Shown: positions 25,553 to 32,336 of the stretch, one piece after another | Layout of the letters: the number at the start of each line of letters is the position of its first letter | How positions within the stretch are numbered: position 1 is the stretch's first letter | Source: an uncultured delta proteobacterium | GTDB lineage: Bacteria > Desulfobacterota > Desulfobacteria > Desulfobacterales > SG8-13 | DNA: 64,000 nt | Direction: 5' to 3' | Assembly: GCA_963848135.1 (NCBI GenBank) | Contig: CAWKCK010000018.1 | Coordinates: forward strand, 634,938-698,937 | Position numbers and translations under genes: made by a program | The notes under the pieces: model-generated | The model's input: the letters and a program-made list of their open reading frames with translations, nothing else | Told to the model about the DNA's origin: nothing | Database searches by the model: none

Positions 25553-26185
25553 ATGTTGCCGGACATCACATCGAAGCAGCAGCGCTTCCTGGGCTATCTG
25601 GAACAGGAACTCAACCGCAGCGGCAAGACGCCCAGCCTGCGGCAGGCGGCCCGTGATCTGGGCGTGAGCCATGCCGCCATCTCGCAGATGCTCAAATCCC
25701 TGGAAGCCAGGGGATTCGTACGGCGCGACGGTCGCTACAGTCGCACCGTTCATCTACTCAACCGCACCGGAGAGCCCGCGGCGGCAATGCGCTGGCTGGA
25801 GGTGCCAATCATCGGCAGAATCGCCGCCGGCCTGCCCCTGTATGCCCAGCCGGAGTGGAGCGGAAGCCTGGTGGTCGACGCCGCCGTGTACCGCAGCCCC
25901 CACTTGTTTGCCCTCCGGGTCAAAGGCGAATCGATGAAAAACGCCGCCATCCTGGACGGCGACCTGGTCATCTGCGCACCCCGTCAGTACGCGGAAAACA
26001 GAGAAATCGTCGTGGCGCTGATCCGGCAGGAGGAGGCCACGGTCAAACGGTTTTTCCGCCGCAAGGACCACATCGAATTACACCCGGAAAATCCGGCCTA
26101 TCCGCCCCAGCGTTACCGGTTCGATGACATCCTGGTCCAGGGTAAGGTGGTCGGCGTTCATCGGGGGCCGGAAGGCATAAAGTAA
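25553..26185 (+). CDS. lexA: LexA repressor
   Basis: N-terminal wHTH, cleavage site IAAGLP, catalytic GESM and TVKR. Confidence 0.93.
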   Translation: MLPDITSKQQRFLGYLEQELNRSGKTPSLRQAARDLGVSHAAISQMLKSLEARGFVRRDGRYSRTVHLLNRTGEPAAAMRWLEVPIIGRIAAGLPLYAQPEWSGSLVVDAAVYRSPHLFALRVKGESMKNAAILDGDLVICAPRQYAENREIVVALIRQEEATVKRFFRRKDHIELHPENPAYPPQRYRFDDILVQGKVVGVHRGPEGIK

Positions 26186-26326
26186 TGGCCATCCATAAAT
26201 GGCCTTTTTTACGCTGGTCGGCGTTCTCCGCAGGTTTCCGGCTGCGGCGTACGAAAAGTACGCCTCGCCGGAAACCTTTGTGCGGCCTTGCCCAGCGAAA
26301 AAAATTCTCATTTATGAATTGGACAT
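26185..26326. mobile_element. MITE-like palindromic element between lexA and DUF72
   Basis: Ends atggccatccataaatg / catttatgaattggacat; central ggcgtac-gaaaa-gtacgcc hairpin. Confidence 0.65.
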
Positions 26327-26334
26327 ACATTCAG

Positions 26335-26414
26335 AACTCAAAGCTGAAAGCAAAGGAAGTTGCCGGCCGGTCTTTGATCTATAGCTCTCGACTTTGAGCT
26401 TTGAGCTTTCAGCT
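26335..26414. repeat. Inverted heptamer repeat cluster
   Basis: ctcaaag ctgaaag ... ctttgag ctttgag ctttcag. Confidence 0.6.
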
Positions 26415-26458
26415 CTCGCAAACAGCATCGGAGCAAGAGTGCATCTTGGACGTACCGT

Positions 26459-27289
26459 ATGGAAGCCAAACCATCCCATACCCCTTGCCGTATCCACGTT
26501 GGCACCAGCGGCTATGCCTACACCGAATGGGTCACGGCCGGGTTTTACCCCGCCGGCACCACAACGGACCGGATGCTGGCGCTGTATGCCCGCCGCTTTT
26601 CCGTAACCGAACTCAACGCCACGGCCTATCAGCTTCCCCGGGCCGAGACGGTGGAGCGGCGCCGTCGGCAGGTTCCACCGGATTTCCTGTTCGCTGTCCG
26701 GCTGACGCGCACCCTGACACATGAAATCGACTTCCAGCGCTGGCCCGACCTGGCCTTGGCGTACCGGGACGGCCTCGCGCCCTTGATTCAGACCCGCCAG
26801 TTGGTGGTTGTTTTGATTCAGTTCCCGTCGACTTTCGACCGCACCCCGATTCATCGCAGACACCTGGCCGCCCTTCTCGACGCACTCCAGGGACTGCCCC
26901 TGGCGGTCGAGTTCCGCCACCGTTCCTGGGCCACGGACCGTGTGTTGCACGAACTTGAAAAGCGCCGGACAGCGCTGGTGGTCGTCGACGGTCCACCCCT
27001 GCCGGACATGTTTCCGGTCTGGGAAGCCGTCACCAACCCGGAGCTTTTCTGCGTCCGCTTTTACGGCCGCAACACCGGGGGCTGGCATTCGGGCAAACCG
27101 TCCCGGCAGTTCGACTACTGCTATGCCGATGATGAATTGTGCGAATGGATCGAGAGCCGGATCGAACCGTTGAGTTGCCGCGCCCGCAAGGGGATTCTGC
27201 TGTTCGGCAACCACGTGCGGGCCCAGGCGCCGCAGAATGCACAACGGATGATACGCCTGCTGCGGAGAAGCGGTCTGAAAGTGACGTGA
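26459..27289 (+). CDS. DUF72 (YecE-like) protein
   Basis: IHVGTSGYAYTEW...FYP, ELNATAY, LIQFP, AVEFRHRSW, VRFYGRN, GNH. Confidence 0.9.
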   Translation: MEAKPSHTPCRIHVGTSGYAYTEWVTAGFYPAGTTTDRMLALYARRFSVTELNATAYQLPRAETVERRRRQVPPDFLFAVRLTRTLTHEIDFQRWPDLALAYRDGLAPLIQTRQLVVVLIQFPSTFDRTPIHRRHLAALLDALQGLPLAVEFRHRSWATDRVLHELEKRRTALVVVDGPPLPDMFPVWEAVTNPELFCVRFYGRNTGGWHSGKPSRQFDYCYADDELCEWIESRIEPLSCRARKGILLFGNHVRAQAPQNAQRMIRLLRRSGLKVT

Positions 27290-27296
27290 TTTGCAC

Positions 27297-27522
27297 TCAC
27301 CACAGAGCACGCAGGGGACGCAGAGAATAAGTCGTTTTTGCTTTCCGCTGAGAGGGCGGAAAGCAAAAAGAATCTGGCCCGTGGAACAGTTTGATTTTAG
27401 TACCTACAAAAAACTTTTCACGAGTGTTCCGAGGGACAACCGTCAAAGGTTTTCCGTTGCCGGCCTCTCACCGGCAACGGAAAAATTTGATTATCTTTGC
27501 GGTCTCCGCGCCTCTGCGGTGA
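27297..27522. mobile_element. Empty paired-hairpin element (TGAGAGG-loop family)
   Basis: Outer inverted repeat tcaccacagag...ctctgcggtga; two inner hairpins with loops tgagagg and cctctca. Confidence 0.75.
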
Positions 27523-27542
27523 ATCCTTCGATAGGTGACGGC

Positions 27543-28727
27543 ATGGGTTTGACGCATGAACGGTCGATCATTCACTTGAATGTGGCCGACTTTGCCGTAG
27601 CGGTGGAGCGCGTGGTAGACAGCCGATTGCAGGGCCGACCGGTCATCATCGCGCCCGAAGGCGCTGCCCGCGCTGCCGTATATGACATGAGCGAAGAGGC
27701 CTATCAATCCGGCGTCCGCAAGGGAATGGCCCTGCGCCGGGCCTTGCGGTACTGCCGTGGCGCCGCCGTGCTGCCGCCGCATCCCGATCGCTACGAACGG
27801 GCCATGGCCGGTTTTCTCAAACACGCCCTGCCCTATTCGCCTCTGGTTGAAATAACCGATCACAAAGGCCATCTGTTCATCGACGTCACCGGAACGGGGC
27901 GGCTCTTCGGTCCGCCCCCGGACCTGGCCGCACACATCCGCCAGGCCGTGTGCAGCGACCTGGGATTTAACCCGATTTGGTCCGTCGCAACCAACAAGCT
28001 GGTGGCCAAAGCCGCTTCGCGCACCGTCAAACCGGACGGCGAATCCGTTGTCCCGCCGGGCAACGAGGCCAATTTTCTGGCGCCGCTGCCCCTCCATCTG
28101 ATTCCCGGAATCGAATCCGAAGACCTCAGCCGCCTGCGTGAGTTCAATCTGGTCAATGCCGGCCAGGTGGCCCGTCTTTCGGCAGTCCAGCTATCGGTGG
28201 CTTTCGGCCGGCGGAACGGGGAACTGTATGACGCGGTCCGTGGTGTCGACCCATCGCCAGTCATACCCGCCGGCCAGGCACCGGCGGCCGTCCAGGTCTT
28301 ACATGCATTCGGGAACGACACCAACGATACAACCGTTGCGGAAGGGGTTCTCTACCGACTGGTGGAACAGGCCGGCGCCGATCTGCGCCGTCGCCGCCTG
28401 GCCGCGCGGCGGGTAGGAATTATGCTCGACTACTCCGACGGCGCGCGCCTGGTGCGCCAGGCAACCGTGCATCCGGCAACCGCCAGTGATCCACGCCTGT
28501 TCGCTGCCGCCCGAACAGCGCTCTACCGTGCTTGGTCGCGTCGCATCCGGATTCGAAACCTGCGGTTGGTTTGCGACCGTCTGACCTATCCCCCGGCCCA
28601 GTTGTCACTTTTTGCCGCAGAAAACGCTGCACAGCAAAAAAACGACCGGTTGGTTGCCGCCCTCGACGCTATCCGTGGCCGTTTCGGCAGAGGGGCCGTA
28701 AGCGTCGGCCGTACGTTGTCCGTTTAG
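27543..28727 (+). CDS. imuB: Y-family polymerase homologue lacking catalytic acidic residues (ImuB-like)
   Basis: IIHLNVADFAVAVE where DinB has HVDMDAFYASVE; no SIDE motif; clamp-binding QLSLF present; start corrected to 27543. Confidence 0.8.
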   Translation: MGLTHERSIIHLNVADFAVAVERVVDSRLQGRPVIIAPEGAARAAVYDMSEEAYQSGVRKGMALRRALRYCRGAAVLPPHPDRYERAMAGFLKHALPYSPLVEITDHKGHLFIDVTGTGRLFGPPPDLAAHIRQAVCSDLGFNPIWSVATNKLVAKAASRTVKPDGESVVPPGNEANFLAPLPLHLIPGIESEDLSRLREFNLVNAGQVARLSAVQLSVAFGRRNGELYDAVRGVDPSPVIPAGQAPAAVQVLHAFGNDTNDTTVAEGVLYRLVEQAGADLRRRRLAARRVGIMLDYSDGARLVRQATVHPATASDPRLFAAARTALYRAWSRRIRIRNLRLVCDRLTYPPAQLSLFAAENAAQQKNDRLVAALDAIRGRFGRGAVSVGRTLSV

Positions 28728-28730
28728 GGC

Positions 28731-29320
28731 TCACCGCCGAGACGCAAAGGACGCAGAGAAATAAATTTTTCTCTTGCCGTTGAGAGGACGGCAAGAGAAA
28801 AGGATTGCCTTTTTCTATTCTACAAGAACCGGAGGCTTCATGGATATTAACAAATTAAGCAGTAAAATCATCGGGGCAGCGATTGAAGTTCATAAGACCC
28901 TGGGACCCGGTCTCCTTGAATCCGCATACGAAGAATACCTGTGTCACGAACTTAATCGAAACAACTTGTCTTTTGAGCGTCAAAAAGCGCCACCCATTTG
29001 TATACAAAGGAAAAAGGCTCGATTGCGGATATAAATTGGACATCGTCGTTGAAAACACGATCGTCCTCGAACTCAAATCCTGCAAACAGATTGAACCGAT
29101 TCATAAAGCTCAACTTTTAACATACCTGAAGTTATCCGACTTAACTTTGGGATTGCTGCTGAACTTCAGGGTGTCAGTCATGCGTGACGGTATTGTCAGA
29201 ATCGTAAACAGGCTAAAAGAATAAGGCTCCTCAGAAGAGACGATTCCTTTTGCTTTTCGCCCTCTCAGCGAAAAGCAAAAAATAATCTCTTCTCAGCGCT
29301 CTCGGCGTCTCTGCGGTAAA
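28731..29320. mobile_element. Paired-hairpin element (TGAGAGG-loop family) enclosing a GxxExxY gene
   Basis: Same outer inverted repeat and hairpin loops as 27297-27522, with a gene between the arms. Confidence 0.75.
28840..29224 (+). pseudogene. GxxExxY protein (PD-(D/E)XK-like), split by a +1 frameshift near 28995
   Basis: [30 protein letters not shown] in one frame; [17 protein letters not shown]...ELKS...AQLLTYLK...GLLLNF in another. Confidence 0.88.
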
Positions 29321-29330
29321 ATTGACAACT

Positions 29331-32300
29331 ATGATCCCACTCATCGTCCACTCCTATTACTCCCTCATGTGGGGAACGCGGTCCCCGGGCAAGATCTGCG
29401 CCGTGGCCCGAAGGCTGGGCTACCGAAAGCTGGCGCTGACCGATACCGATAATCTCTACGGACTGTGGCCGTTTTTGGATGCCTGCCGGCAGGAGGGCAT
29501 CACCCCCATTGTCGGTGCCGAGTTGACCGACCCGGCATCCGATCACCGAGCGGTTTGCCTGGTGGAAAACGACACCGGCTACCGCAACCTTTGCCGCCTG
29601 ATTACCCGCCGCCGGTTCGCGGAAAAAGCCCCCTTCGCATTCGAAACCGCGGTGGCCGATCTGGCCGAGGGACTGGTGGTGTTGACCCGGAATGCCGATT
29701 TGATGCGATCCTGGCATGCGGCCGGTGTCACTGTAGTCGGAAACGCGCAGGGTCGGCCCGATGGCCCGGCGCTGCGCCTGCGGCAGGCGGCCCGTCAACT
29801 CGGGTTGCCGGTTGCCGCCACCCCAGGTAGCTTCTTTCTCGAGCCGGAAGACGCGAAGGTCCACTGCCTGCTCAGAGCCATCGACGGCAACACAACCTTC
29901 TCCCGCCTGGCGACGGTTGATACCGCCCCGGCCGATGCCTGGCTAGCCCCACCCTCTGTCTATGACCGGTTGTTCGCCATGTGGCCGGACACCATCCGCA
30001 CGACCCATGAAATTGCCGAACGTCTGACGTTCGCCGGCCCTCACAACGATATGGTTCTACCACCGATGCTCGACTCCCGGGGTGAAACGACCGCCCACCT
30101 TCTGCGACAGGCCGCCTACACCGGTGCCCGGCGCCGCTATGGCGACGACCTATCGGAACCGGTGGTTGAACGACTGGAACACGAACTGCGCATTATCCGG
30201 CAGATGGGTTTTTGTTCTTACTTCCTGGTGGTTCAGGACATCGTGGCCCGCAGCCCGCGTATCTGCGGTCGGGGTAGTGGCGCCGCATCGCTGGTTGCCT
30301 ACAGCATGGGGATCACAAACGTCTGTCCCATCAAGCATAACCTCTACTTCGAACGATTCCTCAACCCCGGGCGTCAGGATCCGCCCGACATCGACGTTGA
30401 TTTCGCCTGGGATGAACGTGACGGGGTCATCGATTCGGTTCTGAACCAGTACCCCGGTCACGCAGCCATGGTCTGCAACCACGTGGCCTTCCGGCCCCGC
30501 ATGGCCATTCGTGAAACGGCCAAGGTATACGGATTGACCAACCGCGAGATCGGCCAGGTGTCGCGGCGGCTGCCCTGGTTCTGGAAAGCCGCCAGTGAGG
30601 ACGACGACCTGTTAACCCGGCTCAGAGAGCTGCCTGAGTTGAGTCAGATCGATTTCCCGGAACCCTGGCCCGAGATCATCCACCTGGCCCAGCGCATCAT
30701 CGGGCTGCCGCGTCACATTTCGGTTCATCCCGGAGGCATTATTATCACGCCCAATCCCATCGACGAGTACGTGCCGATTGAGCCGGCGCCCAAAGGCGTG
30801 CCGATCATCCAGTGGGAAAAGGATGCCACGGAAACGGCCGGGCTGGTCAAGATCGATCTTCTCGGTAACCGCAGCCTGGGAGTGATCCGCGATGCCGTCG
30901 CCAATGTCCGCAAAAACGGTATCGGTTTTGACGAACGCAAATGGGAGCCGGAAGACGACCGGGCCACGCAACGCACCGTGGCTGCGGGACACACTATGGG
31001 TTGCTTCTATATCGAAAGCCCGGCCACACGTCTGTTGCAGCAAAAATCAAAGGTCGGAGATTTCGAGCACATCGTCATCCACAGCAGTATTATCCGGCCG
31101 GCGGCCAATACCTTCATCCGCGAGTACATCCGTCGCCTTCGCGGCGGTCGATGGGAACCGCTCCATCCACTGCTCGCAGATGTTCTCGACGAAACCTACG
31201 GCATTATGGTCTACCAGGAGGATGTCTCCAAAACCGCTATGGCTGTGGCCGGTTTTGATCACGTGGAAGCCGACGGATTGCGAAAGGTCCTGTCTAAAAA
31301 AGACAAGGCCCGCCGTTTGGCTGACTACCGGCAGCAGTTTTTTTCCGGTGCCCGTGTCCGTGGAGTGGAAGATGTAAAAATTGAAGAAATCTGGCAAATG
31401 ATGATGAGCTTTGCGGGCTACTCCTTTTGCAAGCCTCACAGCGCCAGTTTTGCCCGGGTCTCGTTCCAGTCCGCCTATTTGAAGACCCACCACCCGGCTG
31501 AATTCATGGCAGCAGTAATAAGCAACCAGGGCGGATTCTATAGTACTTTTGCCTACGTCTCCGAAGCACGACGCATGGGCCTGACGGTCCTGCCGCCGGA
31601 TGTCAACCGCGCCGATATTCGCTGGCAGGGTCACGGCAACGCCCTTCAGGTCGGTCTGTTATCGGTAACCGATATCGGAACGGCAACGCAGCAGCGGATC
31701 GTTTATTGTCGGAAAGATGCGCCGTACCACAATCTGGCAGATTTTCTGAAGCGGGTGCGACCCGAGGAACCGGAGGCCCGTCGCCTGATCCATGCCGGGG
31801 CTTTCGACGTCCTTCATCCGCAAAAAAACCGGGCCGCTCTTATGTGGCAGCTGGCCGCCTGGCAGCAACGGCGCTGCGAGCGCTCGCAACCGCCCGACTT
31901 GTTCGGTGGGCAGATGGCCGCCGCAACGCCAAAACCCTTGCTGCCGCCGGACAACGCGCTTGACCGGATGCGCCGTGAATATAGGGCCCTGGGGTTTTTG
32001 TGCGACCGGCATCCAATGCTGCTCTTCAAAGAACAGCTGATGAAGTACGGTGTCGTCAAAGCAATCGATTTAAAAAAATTTGCCGGACGACGGGTGCGGG
32101 TGGCCGGCTTGTTGATCACCGGTAAAATTGTTAGCACAAAACATGGCGACCCCATGGAATTTCTGACCTTCGAGGACGAAACCGGTCTGGTGGAAACAAC
32201 CTTTTTCCCACAGGCCTACCGCCGATTCTGCGCCATACTCGACCGCTACCGGCCCTACATCCTATCCGGCAAGGTGGACGAAGACTTCGGCGCGGTGACC

Positions 32301-32336
32301 CTGACGGTCGAAAAAGTGGAATGGATCCGCCGTTAG
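29331..32336 (+). CDS. dnaE2: Error-prone DNA polymerase III alpha subunit (DnaE2/ImuC-type)
   Basis: PHP domain HSYYS, GRGSGAAS, PDIDVDF, HPGG, KIDLLG, YSFCKPHS; about 1000 aa; downstream of lexA and an imuB-like gene. Confidence 0.88.
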   Translation: MIPLIVHSYYSLMWGTRSPGKICAVARRLGYRKLALTDTDNLYGLWPFLDACRQEGITPIVGAELTDPASDHRAVCLVENDTGYRNLCRLITRRRFAEKAPFAFETAVADLAEGLVVLTRNADLMRSWHAAGVTVVGNAQGRPDGPALRLRQAARQLGLPVAATPGSFFLEPEDAKVHCLLRAIDGNTTFSRLATVDTAPADAWLAPPSVYDRLFAMWPDTIRTTHEIAERLTFAGPHNDMVLPPMLDSRGETTAHLLRQAAYTGARRRYGDDLSEPVVERLEHELRIIRQMGFCSYFLVVQDIVARSPRICGRGSGAASLVAYSMGITNVCPIKHNLYFERFLNPGRQDPPDIDVDFAWDERDGVIDSVLNQYPGHAAMVCNHVAFRPRMAIRETAKVYGLTNREIGQVSRRLPWFWKAASEDDDLLTRLRELPELSQIDFPEPWPEIIHLAQRIIGLPRHISVHPGGIIITPNPIDEYVPIEPAPKGVPIIQWEKDATETAGLVKIDLLGNRSLGVIRDAVANVRKNGIGFDERKWEPEDDRATQRTVAAGHTMGCFYIESPATRLLQQKSKVGDFEHIVIHSSIIRPAANTFIREYIRRLRGGRWEPLHPLLADVLDETYGIMVYQEDVSKTAMAVAGFDHVEADGLRKVLSKKDKARRLADYRQQFFSGARVRGVEDVKIEEIWQMMMSFAGYSFCKPHSASFARVSFQSAYLKTHHPAEFMAAVISNQGGFYSTFAYVSEARRMGLTVLPPDVNRADIRWQGHGNALQVGLLSVTDIGTATQQRIVYCRKDAPYHNLADFLKRVRPEEPEARRLIHAGAFDVLHPQKNRAALMWQLAAWQQRRCERSQPPDLFGGQMAAATPKPLLPPDNALDRMRREYRALGFLCDRHPMLLFKEQLMKYGVVKAIDLKKFAGRRVRVAGLLITGKIVSTKHGDPMEFLTFEDETGLVETTFFPQAYRRFCAILDRYRPYILSGKVDEDFGAVTLTVEKVEWIRR

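Follow-up and report, generated by a model that had tools for sequence, protein, structure and literature searches.

Paired-hairpin elements in a Desulfobacterota operon belong to a widespread palindromic repeat family associated with GxxExxY genes

Two kinds of small element offer the closest comparisons for the locus described here. Repetitive extragenic palindromic (REP) sequences carry a conserved GTAG-type tetranucleotide 5' of the palindrome, and the associated transposase, RAYT, has an HUH/Y1 fold. The intervening sequences of 23S rRNA in Leptospira and Coxiella have a long stem formed by terminal inverted repeats, tandem heptamers in the arms and one small open reading frame (ORF) of unknown role, and the ORF-bearing forms have been suspected of being selfish elements since the 1990s (PMC4990558, in its sections on these sequences). 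Here we analysed a 64,000-nt stretch of DNA (the window) from contig CAWKCK010000018.1 of an uncultured delta proteobacterium, in which the DUF72, imuB and dnaE2-like genes are all co-directional and each of the two spacers between them is occupied by a mirror-symmetric element. The first element, E1 (27297-27522), is gene-free and the second, E2 (28731-29319), encloses a frameshifted GxxExxY gene. E1 and E2 are members of a widespread repeat family, and we propose, with moderate confidence, that both are long-standing resident members of a family of small, palindromic and selfish cassettes driven by a nuclease. Below, G000 is the genome holding the window (6.03 Mb), other G-numbers are the genomes compared and L-numbers are loci fetched.

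The outer arms of each element are inverted, each contains three CGCAGAG-like words, and each is accompanied by one perfect hairpin of 13-14 bp. The left outer arm of E1 (27297..27327, + strand; arm model match 27287-27375, 79.5 bits) consists of TCACC followed by three CRCAGRG words. It is followed by the left hairpin (27335..27369, +), a 100% complementary inverted repeat of the TTCCGC class with a 14-bp stem (27335-27348/27356-27369) and the loop TGAGAGG (27349-27355). A gene-free inner segment of 80 nt (27370..27449), which forms a short central hairpin in the single-strand fold, separates this from the right hairpin (27450..27484, - strand; 14-bp stem 27450-27463/27471-27484, TGCCGG class, loop CCTCTCA on the + strand at 27464-27470). 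The right outer arm (27494..27522, -; model match 27444-27532, 82.1 bits) mirrors the left and ends in ...CTCTGCGGTGA. The left outer arm of E2 (28731..28760, +; model match 28721-28807, 87.2 bits) contains direct and inverted repeats, and its left hairpin (28767..28801, +; 14-bp stem 28767-28780/28788-28801, loop TGAGAGG at 28781-28787, TGCCGT class) adjoins the 5' end of the GxxExxY (PDDEXK_3) gene. This gene (28840..29224, +, 385 nt) carries a +1 frameshift near 28997 and matches PF13366 in two frames. Its 3' end adjoins the right hairpin (29248..29280, -; 13-bp stem 29248-29260/29268-29280, loop CCTCTCA on the + strand at 29261-29267, TTTCGC class), and the right outer arm (29290..29319, -; model match 29241-29329, 82.6 bits) is the inverted repeat of the left, with 79% complementarity over 28 nt (28733-28760/29290-29317). 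Folded as a whole, each element forms a rod from which two hairpins branch (z -8.6 and -5.7). A sequence-only reading of this DNA had proposed such a layout, with a shared outer inverted repeat, four perfectly paired stems of mutually different sequence, an invariant loop (TGAGAGG on left arms, CCTCTCA on right arms) and one element empty while the other bears a GxxExxY gene. Our analysis confirmed each of these points for the window, with the correction that the gene in E2 is frameshifted.

Several features are shared with REP/RAYT systems. Short palindromic units occur as inverted doublets, with tens up to at least 73 arms per genome; a single-copy gene lies between two inverted units; gene-free doublets greatly outnumber gene-bearing ones (36 empty pairs in the sampled loci); and IS110-family elements insert into the arms, as they do into REP sequences (PMC8450116, in its account of such insertions). 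The enzyme fold is different, PD-(D/E)XK here and HUH/Y1 in RAYT. The 104 aligned arms lack GTAG and instead have an AT-rich spacer and then TTTT before the stem, and they add phased heptamer words, a conserved loop and two ends that are unlike each other. No Y1 transposase gene was found between arms: G000 has four PF01797 (Y1_Tnp) matches, none of them flanked by arms, and the match nearest to any arm is an 86-aa fragment (C5:696129-696389) 1.1 kb away from one. A RAYT or IS200 enzyme was therefore ruled out as the partner, and the comparison with REP/RAYT made in the sequence-only reading holds as an analogy. The elements also differ from IS200/IS605 elements in that the hairpin motif is mirrored between the ends rather than lying on one strand, and no TnpA gene lies inside them. 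Miniature inverted-repeat transposable elements are likewise small, with terminal inverted repeats and without a transposase, show bursts of copies in some genomes, share the ends of a gene-bearing parent and are partly derived from it by internal deletion (here L131 and L335). In contrast to them, the parent here has no recognised transposase, and the ends are word arrays plus a hairpin rather than a simple inverted repeat; a target-site duplication was not recognised at the apparent ends.

On its architecture, the Coxiella intervening sequence appears to be the closest described relative of the cassette (PMC4990558, as far as its description of that sequence goes). Cassettes carrying a member of the S23p/four-helix-bundle family even occupy the same intergenic sites in relatives of G000. 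The differences are that E1 and E2 lie between protein-coding genes, in operon spacers, rather than in an rRNA helix, that the cargo is a predicted nuclease rather than a four-helix bundle, and that the subterminal hairpins with their conserved loop are an addition here.

The hairpins of E1 and E2 are not due to chance, since perfect 12-14 bp stems flank 7 of the 364 TGAGAGG/CCTCTCA words in G000, compared to about 2e-5 expected by calculation, and the four arms score far above anything else in the window. The covariance model returned exactly these four arms at 79-87 bits, the next scores being at most 20 bits. The seven hairpins are the four in E1 and E2, those in a third element on contig C5, which is empty, and the hairpin of a lone arm. 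Rfam gave four matches over 26000-31000, all sub-threshold (best 19 bits, threshold 55.5). A pattern derived from the hairpins matched at least 119 loci in one-per-species genomes, nearly all of them Desulfobacterales-type metagenome-assembled genomes. About 14 of the 132 pattern seeds look like chance, and by calculation about 69 chance matches are expected over the entire collection; the filter used to assign seeds to the family was too strict, excluding 36 of the 132, of which about 14 are chance-like and the rest resemble true members. The covariance-model scan that the sequence-only reading had proposed (arm model R1) revealed at least 39 arms in G000 at E<=0.01, with 150 of 2162 candidates scored. 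Arms were present in 18 of the 20 genomes of the taxonomic family (E<=1e-6) and in 30 of the 151 genomes, or 20 of the 109 genera, sampled from the order (E<=1e-10), with the highest counts in G128 (at least 73) and G125 (at least 62).

Aligned over 88 positions, the arms read TTCACCGCAGAG-nCGCAGAG-nnCGCAGAG, an AT-rich spacer and then TTTT-stem-TGAGAGG-stem-AAAA. The words are variable and spaced at 8-10 nt, and strict 9-bp word detectors gave only 1 and 0 arrays. Among the 104 aligned arms, which had been selected for perfect stems, 98.4% of stem cells are paired, 12 of the 14 pairs show double-sided changes, and the stem covariation score is 0.556, compared to 0.143 after shuffling and at most 0.141 with slid partners. 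An unbiased check was made on 96 seeds at stem positions 7-13, which the pattern leaves unfixed: 647 of 672 cells were Watson-Crick, 6 were G-T and 19 were mismatched. G-T thus made up 6 of the 25 non-Watson-Crick cells, no clear excess, which fits DNA better than RNA. Hence the stems covary through Watson-Crick pairs around a loop that is kept over many copies, as the sequence-only reading had suggested from four arms. The strict invariance of the loop seen in the window does not extend to the family, where TGAGACG, TGAGGGG, GGAGACGA and GAGATA also occur; TGAGACG is about as frequent as TGAGAGG in G000.

Two other accounts of the hairpin were rejected. Kissing between the two loops of an element would explain loop conservation, but mixed TGAGAGG/TGAGACG pairs are common, so complementarity of a pair's loops is unnecessary. 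Intrinsic terminators were discarded because there are 4 terminator-like sites compared to 4.2 expected, and the stem ends in A rather than U. Comparison of the orthologous copies in G000 and G016 revealed two stem pairs that had changed on both sides and still pair, one in the E1 right stem (C-G to T-A) and one in the E2 right stem; three further stem changes broke a pair, and the left loop of E1 is TGAAAGG in G016. Judging from these sequences, the hairpins appear to stay folded long after insertion, through either selection or gene conversion.

To place the elements in their genomic context, the orthologous DUF72-imuB-dnaE2 loci were compared in 12 relatives, with imuB-dnaE2 spacer lengths good to a few bases. 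E1 begins 8 nt past the stop codon of the intact DUF72 gene (26459..27289, +; stop 27287-27289; PF01904, E 4.1e-51) and ends 20 nt before the imuB ATG (27543). The intact imuB gene (27543..28727, +; Y-family polymerase-like, PF00817 and PF11799) lies between the elements, and E2 begins 4 nt past its stop (28725-28727) and ends 11 nt before the ATG (29331) of the intact dnaE2-like gene (29331..32336, +; ORF 29322-32336 with an in-frame ATG at 29331; named from gene order and the sequence-only reading). Both elements therefore sit just past stop codons with the flanking genes intact, as first described. The gene order is kept wherever the locus extends far enough, in 13 loci of the taxonomic family. 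In G018, which belongs to another genus, the spacers are 21 and 43 nt and element-free. The genes overlap at the first site in G002, where the second site holds 153 nt with AACCAAT words. Both elements are present in G016, with an intact gene of 127 aa; G012 has an E2 carrying the same frameshift and a decayed E1; the E2 of G007 has an internally deleted gene; and G005 has an intact gene with hairpins and a nested second element. E2-type arms in G014 enclose a Phd-family antitoxin gene and a ParE-like ORF, and in G017, G015, G013, G008 and G009 the sites are filled by CCGGTT-type word arrays with a TIGR02436 four-helix-bundle gene or what is left of one. The third G000 element belongs to a 365-nt unit at a second locus; G012 and G017 lack this unit there, between flanks that are 84-90% identical, and the unit is found, with its ends unchanged, in five unrelated contexts in G010 and G017. 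The presence/absence polymorphism that the sequence-only reading had proposed looking for at orthologous sites is thus observed. Together, these comparisons show that the cassettes enter short intergenic spacers, also within operons, leave the neighbouring genes unbroken and turn over at the same sites. Empty copies stand in both orientations relative to co-directional neighbours, and in a crude context scan 16 of 22 elements lay between co-directional genes, about as for any intergenic site.

The four-helix-bundle genes in these loci (L128:924-1373 in G017, also L130, L133, L137 and L139) are flanked by inverted CCGGTT/GCCCGTT-type arrays of 9-nt words. In G017, a remnant of a CGCAGAG-type left arm lies beside such a cassette, and the longest imuB frame (L128:1495-2730) extends upstream through the word array, which is translated as QPANRQTGQPANGLT; word arrays can thus be read in frame with a neighbouring gene. 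The arms are also a target of other elements. An IS110-family insertion sequence (PF01548 and PF02371, 417 aa; G000:C4:220110-221363, L184:1111-2361, also near C5:693122 and C17:793335) has inserted three times at the same arm position, just before the second word, indicating that the arms are a specific target for it.

What the arms enclose was assessed in 41 hairpin pairs, 36 of them empty (43-155 nt between loops) and five gene-sized (453-641 nt). A GxxExxY gene lies in all five gene-sized pairs (truncated in L072), which bears out the enrichment between arms that the sequence-only reading had expected. In none of the 41 pairs are both hairpins of the same class, and the hairpin at the 3' end of the gene is T-class in 5/5 (TTCCGY in four, TTTCGC in E2). 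The unlike classes and the constant 3' class indicate that the elements have two distinct ends and a fixed polarity. A full-length element with the nuclease gene (L388, G042:C13:5561-6279) also contains two copies of a short GC-rich palindrome (TTCCCCGCTGCTTGCGGCGGGG). In the reverse direction, we examined 80 GxxExxY relatives from many phyla, 54-83% identical. R1 matches flanked 22 of them on both sides in the expected orientation (7 strongly) and 18 on one side, and 40 had none. The inverted repeat of the flanks exceeded all 20 shuffles in 68 of 76 loci, with a median score of 21.5 compared to 9.0 for the direct-orientation control. Of these 80, only about 14 have perfect subterminal hairpins; they are the closest relatives, and their genomes are all of Desulfobacterota type. 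This suggests that word-armed cassettes are much more widespread and that the hairpin was added to them in one lineage. The hairpin is accordingly a feature of GxxExxY cassettes among the closest relatives but not in general, and the three intact GxxExxY paralogues in G000 itself have CACAGAC-type word arms without it. Internally deleted GxxExxY genes between intact ends (L131 in G007, L335 in G128) demonstrate that some gene-free copies arose by internal deletion of the gene.

The E2 gene scores 50.2 and 78.4 bits on PF13366 in its two frames (cut-off 22), and for its intact orthologue in G016 the scores are 157 bits with TIGR04256 (cut-off 35) and 151.3 with PF13366. The G016 gene has 384 nt (127 aa) compared to 385 nt in the window, where the reading frame is broken. 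Contigs of the sequencing runs X2 and X19 have one base fewer at 28997. The X19 contig, 679 nt long, comes from a close relative's RNA library and extends from the 3' end of imuB over the left arm of E2 and the gene as far as the start of the right hairpin; being an assembled contig, it cannot demonstrate transcription. The lack of the extra base in X19 suggests that the frameshift is specific to the G000 lineage. All four sequencing runs compared consist of assembled contigs, and joints in them that resembled excision (e.g. from 28802 to 29248, where the shorter side has 32 letters) were rejected as such, as they stem from other repeat copies. Proteins of the hairpin clade have 127 aa; eight intact examples are closely alike, and the best 120 database matches are 77-98% identical to the G016 protein. 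Six residues (G22, E27, Y30, D67, N108 and F109) do not vary over 68 sequences, and conservation reaches at least 90% at E77 and K79; an active PD-(D/E)XK nuclease would show this pattern, and these proteins are predicted to be such nucleases. In total, 23,524 cluster representatives match the GxxExxY family at E<=0.001. The top-scoring representatives (P0121-P0130) have two GxxExxY domains in tandem over about 270-295 aa, and such forms hint at a dimer. No sequence relative was found in the Protein Data Bank with a single protein or a profile, and a search of the Atlas also gave no match. A weak, sub-threshold likeness to the Cas4 core, seen in 37 of 68 members (best E 0.0024), is a lead only.

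Whether spread depends on the gene was assessed by comparing empty elements, whole and pairwise, within five genomes. In G128, which has an intact close gene (78% identical to the query), 23 of 153 element pairs are at least 90% identical, and 16 of 18 elements have a copy elsewhere of at least 89% identity. G042, also with an intact close gene (79% identical), has 4 of 105 pairs at this level. No pair reaches 90% in G000, where the gene is frameshifted (0/21, maximum 85%), in G125, where the best relative is 54% identical (0/231), or in the one-contig genome G103, which has no PF13366 match and decayed loops and stems (0/21). Copies at least 90% identical were therefore confined, among the five genomes, to the two with an intact close GxxExxY gene, and in both these near-identical copies stand in unrelated contexts. 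Across the order, arms occur in 8 of the 10 genomes with a relative at least 64% identical compared to 20 of the 139 others, an association that is overstated because related genomes are not independent. The recency pattern fits a relationship between non-autonomous and autonomous elements, although five genomes are no proof of it.

A further link joins the two parts of the arm. In a sample that was not selected by loop, collected with a two-word regular expression and with each distinct stem counted once, arms with ...AGAC words (18 distinct stems) had GAC within the first four loop nucleotides in 15 cases and GAG in none. Arms with ...AGAG words (27 distinct stems) had GAG there in 19 and GAC in one, and in four more stems the GAG lay one base further in. 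Thirty further genomes, chosen because they contain a triple CRCAGAC word, yielded nine perfect hairpins, eight of them with a GAC loop, and several shorter hairpins had GACCT or GACTT. Triple CRCAGAC words occur in 33 of the 151 genomes of the order, compared to three matches in all 151 for the reversed control; single genomes hold up to 148 (G114), 57 (G032), 33 (G035) and 20 (G069) such arrays. The motif lies on one strand and reads the same way in the words as it does in the loop, which points to one reader of both.

These results can be combined in the following model. A full copy would consist of a terminal TCACC with about three phased CRCAGAG words, a short AT-rich spacer and a 14-bp hairpin, then the 127-aa GxxExxY (PD-(D/E)XK) gene and then a second, different hairpin and the mirrored arm. 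Gene-free copies such as E1 retain both ends and would act as non-autonomous relatives. The hairpin would be recognised as folded DNA, single-stranded or cruciform, rather than as RNA. Because loop and arm words appear to share a 3-nt signature, GAG or GAC, one factor may recognise both, most probably the nuclease that the cassette encodes, working in trans as a dimer. The nuclease would cut at or near the arms and so start copying or homing, which host repair would finish. Once the gene decays, as in the window, multiplication would stop and the copies would remain as fossils with their hairpins kept paired. The mobile-element reading is supported for the family; we infer the mechanism, and also the enzyme, the latter because arms persist in genomes without the gene. 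The role of the GxxExxY family is likely that of a part of a selfish genetic element. More broadly, and tentatively, GxxExxY proteins may be the enzymes by which a class of palindromic elements in many phyla is mobilised or homes, reading a GAG/GAC code displayed in arm words and, in Desulfobacterota, also in the loops of folded-DNA hairpins. They would then be a PD-(D/E)XK counterpart of REP/RAYT, with the ORF-bearing 23S rRNA intervening sequences as a sister branch. The restriction of the hairpin module to the closest relatives, the two end classes, the word-loop echo, the cassette-type turnover and the link between recency and the gene are new. GxxExxY/PDDEXK_3 is one of the large orphan prokaryotic families, and its occurrence in a repeat-bounded cassette that multiplies, decays and turns over at fixed intergenic sites, with a motif common to arms and loop, makes it the subject of a concrete, testable hypothesis and connects it to the unexplained ORF-bearing intervening sequences.

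Several observations weigh against this model. G103, G158 and G135 have no PF13366 match yet hold 14, 13 and 2 arms; G002, G010 and G017 likewise have none and hold 25, 26 and 11 arms; G166 and G060 have arms and only fragments of PF13366. In G014 (L132:2865-3424), the Phd/ParE-like pair replaces the nuclease gene and hairpins between arms orthologous to those of E2, and the CCGGTT-word cassettes with four-helix-bundle genes occupy the same two intergenic sites in related species. The proposal of the sequence-only reading that GxxExxY is the cognate enzyme is thus favoured by the enrichment between arms and opposed by arms in genomes without PF13366 and by the alternative cargo. No target-site duplication was recognised in the filled/empty comparison or among six copies of the 365-nt unit, and the element ends are provisional, as the similarity of near-identical G128 copies continues for 30-70 nt past TCACC. 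Clusters of single arms, most of them on one strand, lie among small toxin-antitoxin-like genes (C4:214500-222500 and C5:685500-696000). Each of the two families, GAG and GAC, may have a single ancestor, in which case the echo may be a single historical event and the association perhaps reflects few independent ones. The recency comparison covers five genomes, and the AlphaFold model from a single sequence was unusable (pLDDT, the model's own confidence score, 34.6). To our knowledge, no GxxExxY protein has a known activity, and we know of no strand-transfer activity in a lone PD-(D/E)XK nuclease, so insertion at new sites requires something more. A 2012 survey of the PD-(D/E)XK superfamily gives the function of PF13366 as 'Unknown' (PMC3424549, in its entry for this family). 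We found no description of repeat-flanked GxxExxY cassettes in the main texts of the literature searched, and the passage naming GxxExxY uses it as an annotation label only. Overall, the interpretation in the sequence-only reading is partly supported: we checked for the three outcomes it had named as contrary to it, namely no enrichment of GxxExxY genes between arms, no polymorphism at orthologous sites and loss of loop conservation over many copies, and found none of them.

The arms and hairpins could instead be cassette junctions, folded-DNA recombination sites resembling integron attC that are used by a separate recombinase, with GxxExxY merely the commonest cargo besides toxin-antitoxin pairs and other small genes. 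As in attC, recognition appears to be via a folded strand, stems covary around fixed unpaired bases, and the units bracket small cassettes that include toxin-antitoxin pairs. The different cargo at orthologous arms (GxxExxY in G000 and G016, the Phd/ParE-like pair in G014), the persistence of arms without GxxExxY and, at C4:215-222 kb and C5:686-695 kb, the alternation of single arms with toxin-antitoxin-like genes all fit this explanation. However, no recombinase gene is consistently seen beside the arms, the sole enzyme gene nested in them being the IS110-family transposase that uses them as a target; no IntI gene turned up, though no IntI search was made; and no R''-L''/L'-R' (GTTRRRY) core is visible by eye at the ends of E1 and E2. 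The units are mirrored pairs, one cargo family dominates, GxxExxY fills 5/5 gene-sized pairs in fixed polarity relative to the ends, and recent copies follow the intact gene in 5/5 genomes examined. We consider such recombination sites unlikely.

Two further explanations were considered. One places the element at the RNA level, like the 23S rRNA intervening sequences: RNase III would excise the arm duplex from the operon transcript, the hairpins would cap and stabilise the RNAs, whether released or flanking, and insertion would be made harmless. Each entire element folds as a rod closed by its arms, cassettes of the intervening-sequence protein family stand at orthologous sites in G017, G015 and G013, and the RNA-library contig X19, although a contig only, reaches from imuB to the right hairpin of E2 and takes in the left arm and the gene on the way. 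In Coxiella, the intervening sequence contains an ORF, is closed by a terminal stem of 28 bp, has GACAGAT heptamers in tandem and is excised by RNase III (PMC4990558, in its account of that sequence). Yet G-T cells show no clear excess among non-pairs (6/25), the mirrored loop motif means that a transcript displays it in one of two hairpins only, and empty copies stand in both orientations relative to co-directional neighbours. The hairpin also has no U-tract, terminator-like sites number 4 compared to 4.2 expected, and RNA processing accounts for tolerance of the insertion rather than for its spread. This makes an RNA-level element quite unlikely. The other explanation, which we regard as very unlikely, is that the repeats are structural or regulatory palindromes kept by the host, as proposed for REP (protein binding, mRNA stabilisation, domain organisation), inherited vertically and immobile, with the nuclease gene a passenger. 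The compensatory changes between G000 and G016 favour it, as does G125, where 22 elements are only 69% alike (median) while their arms still score 80-94 bits, suggesting selection in place; gene conversion between copies could also keep stems paired. Against it stand the patchy distribution (20 of 109 genera), presence/absence where the flanks are 84-90% identical, the unrelated contexts of the near-identical copies in G128 and G042, and decayed copies in G103.

The repeats also help to explain assembly breaks in Desulfobacterota from sediment, with at least 7 arm matches at contig ends in G128. Three other repeats were noted. One, of 1.3 kb (L144:26-1346, G000:C5:317725-319045), is repeated with 100% identity, in full or in part, at four more sites of G000; it ends about 150 nt from a single arm (C5:319201-319288) and has probably replaced the other half of that element. 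Two shorter repeats are unrelated to the arms: a 123-nt repeat (L143:2979-3101) with at least 16 copies at 92-95% identity in G000, and a 143-nt repeat (L143:2151-2293) for which the matches listed fall in most of the 16 genomes of the genus.

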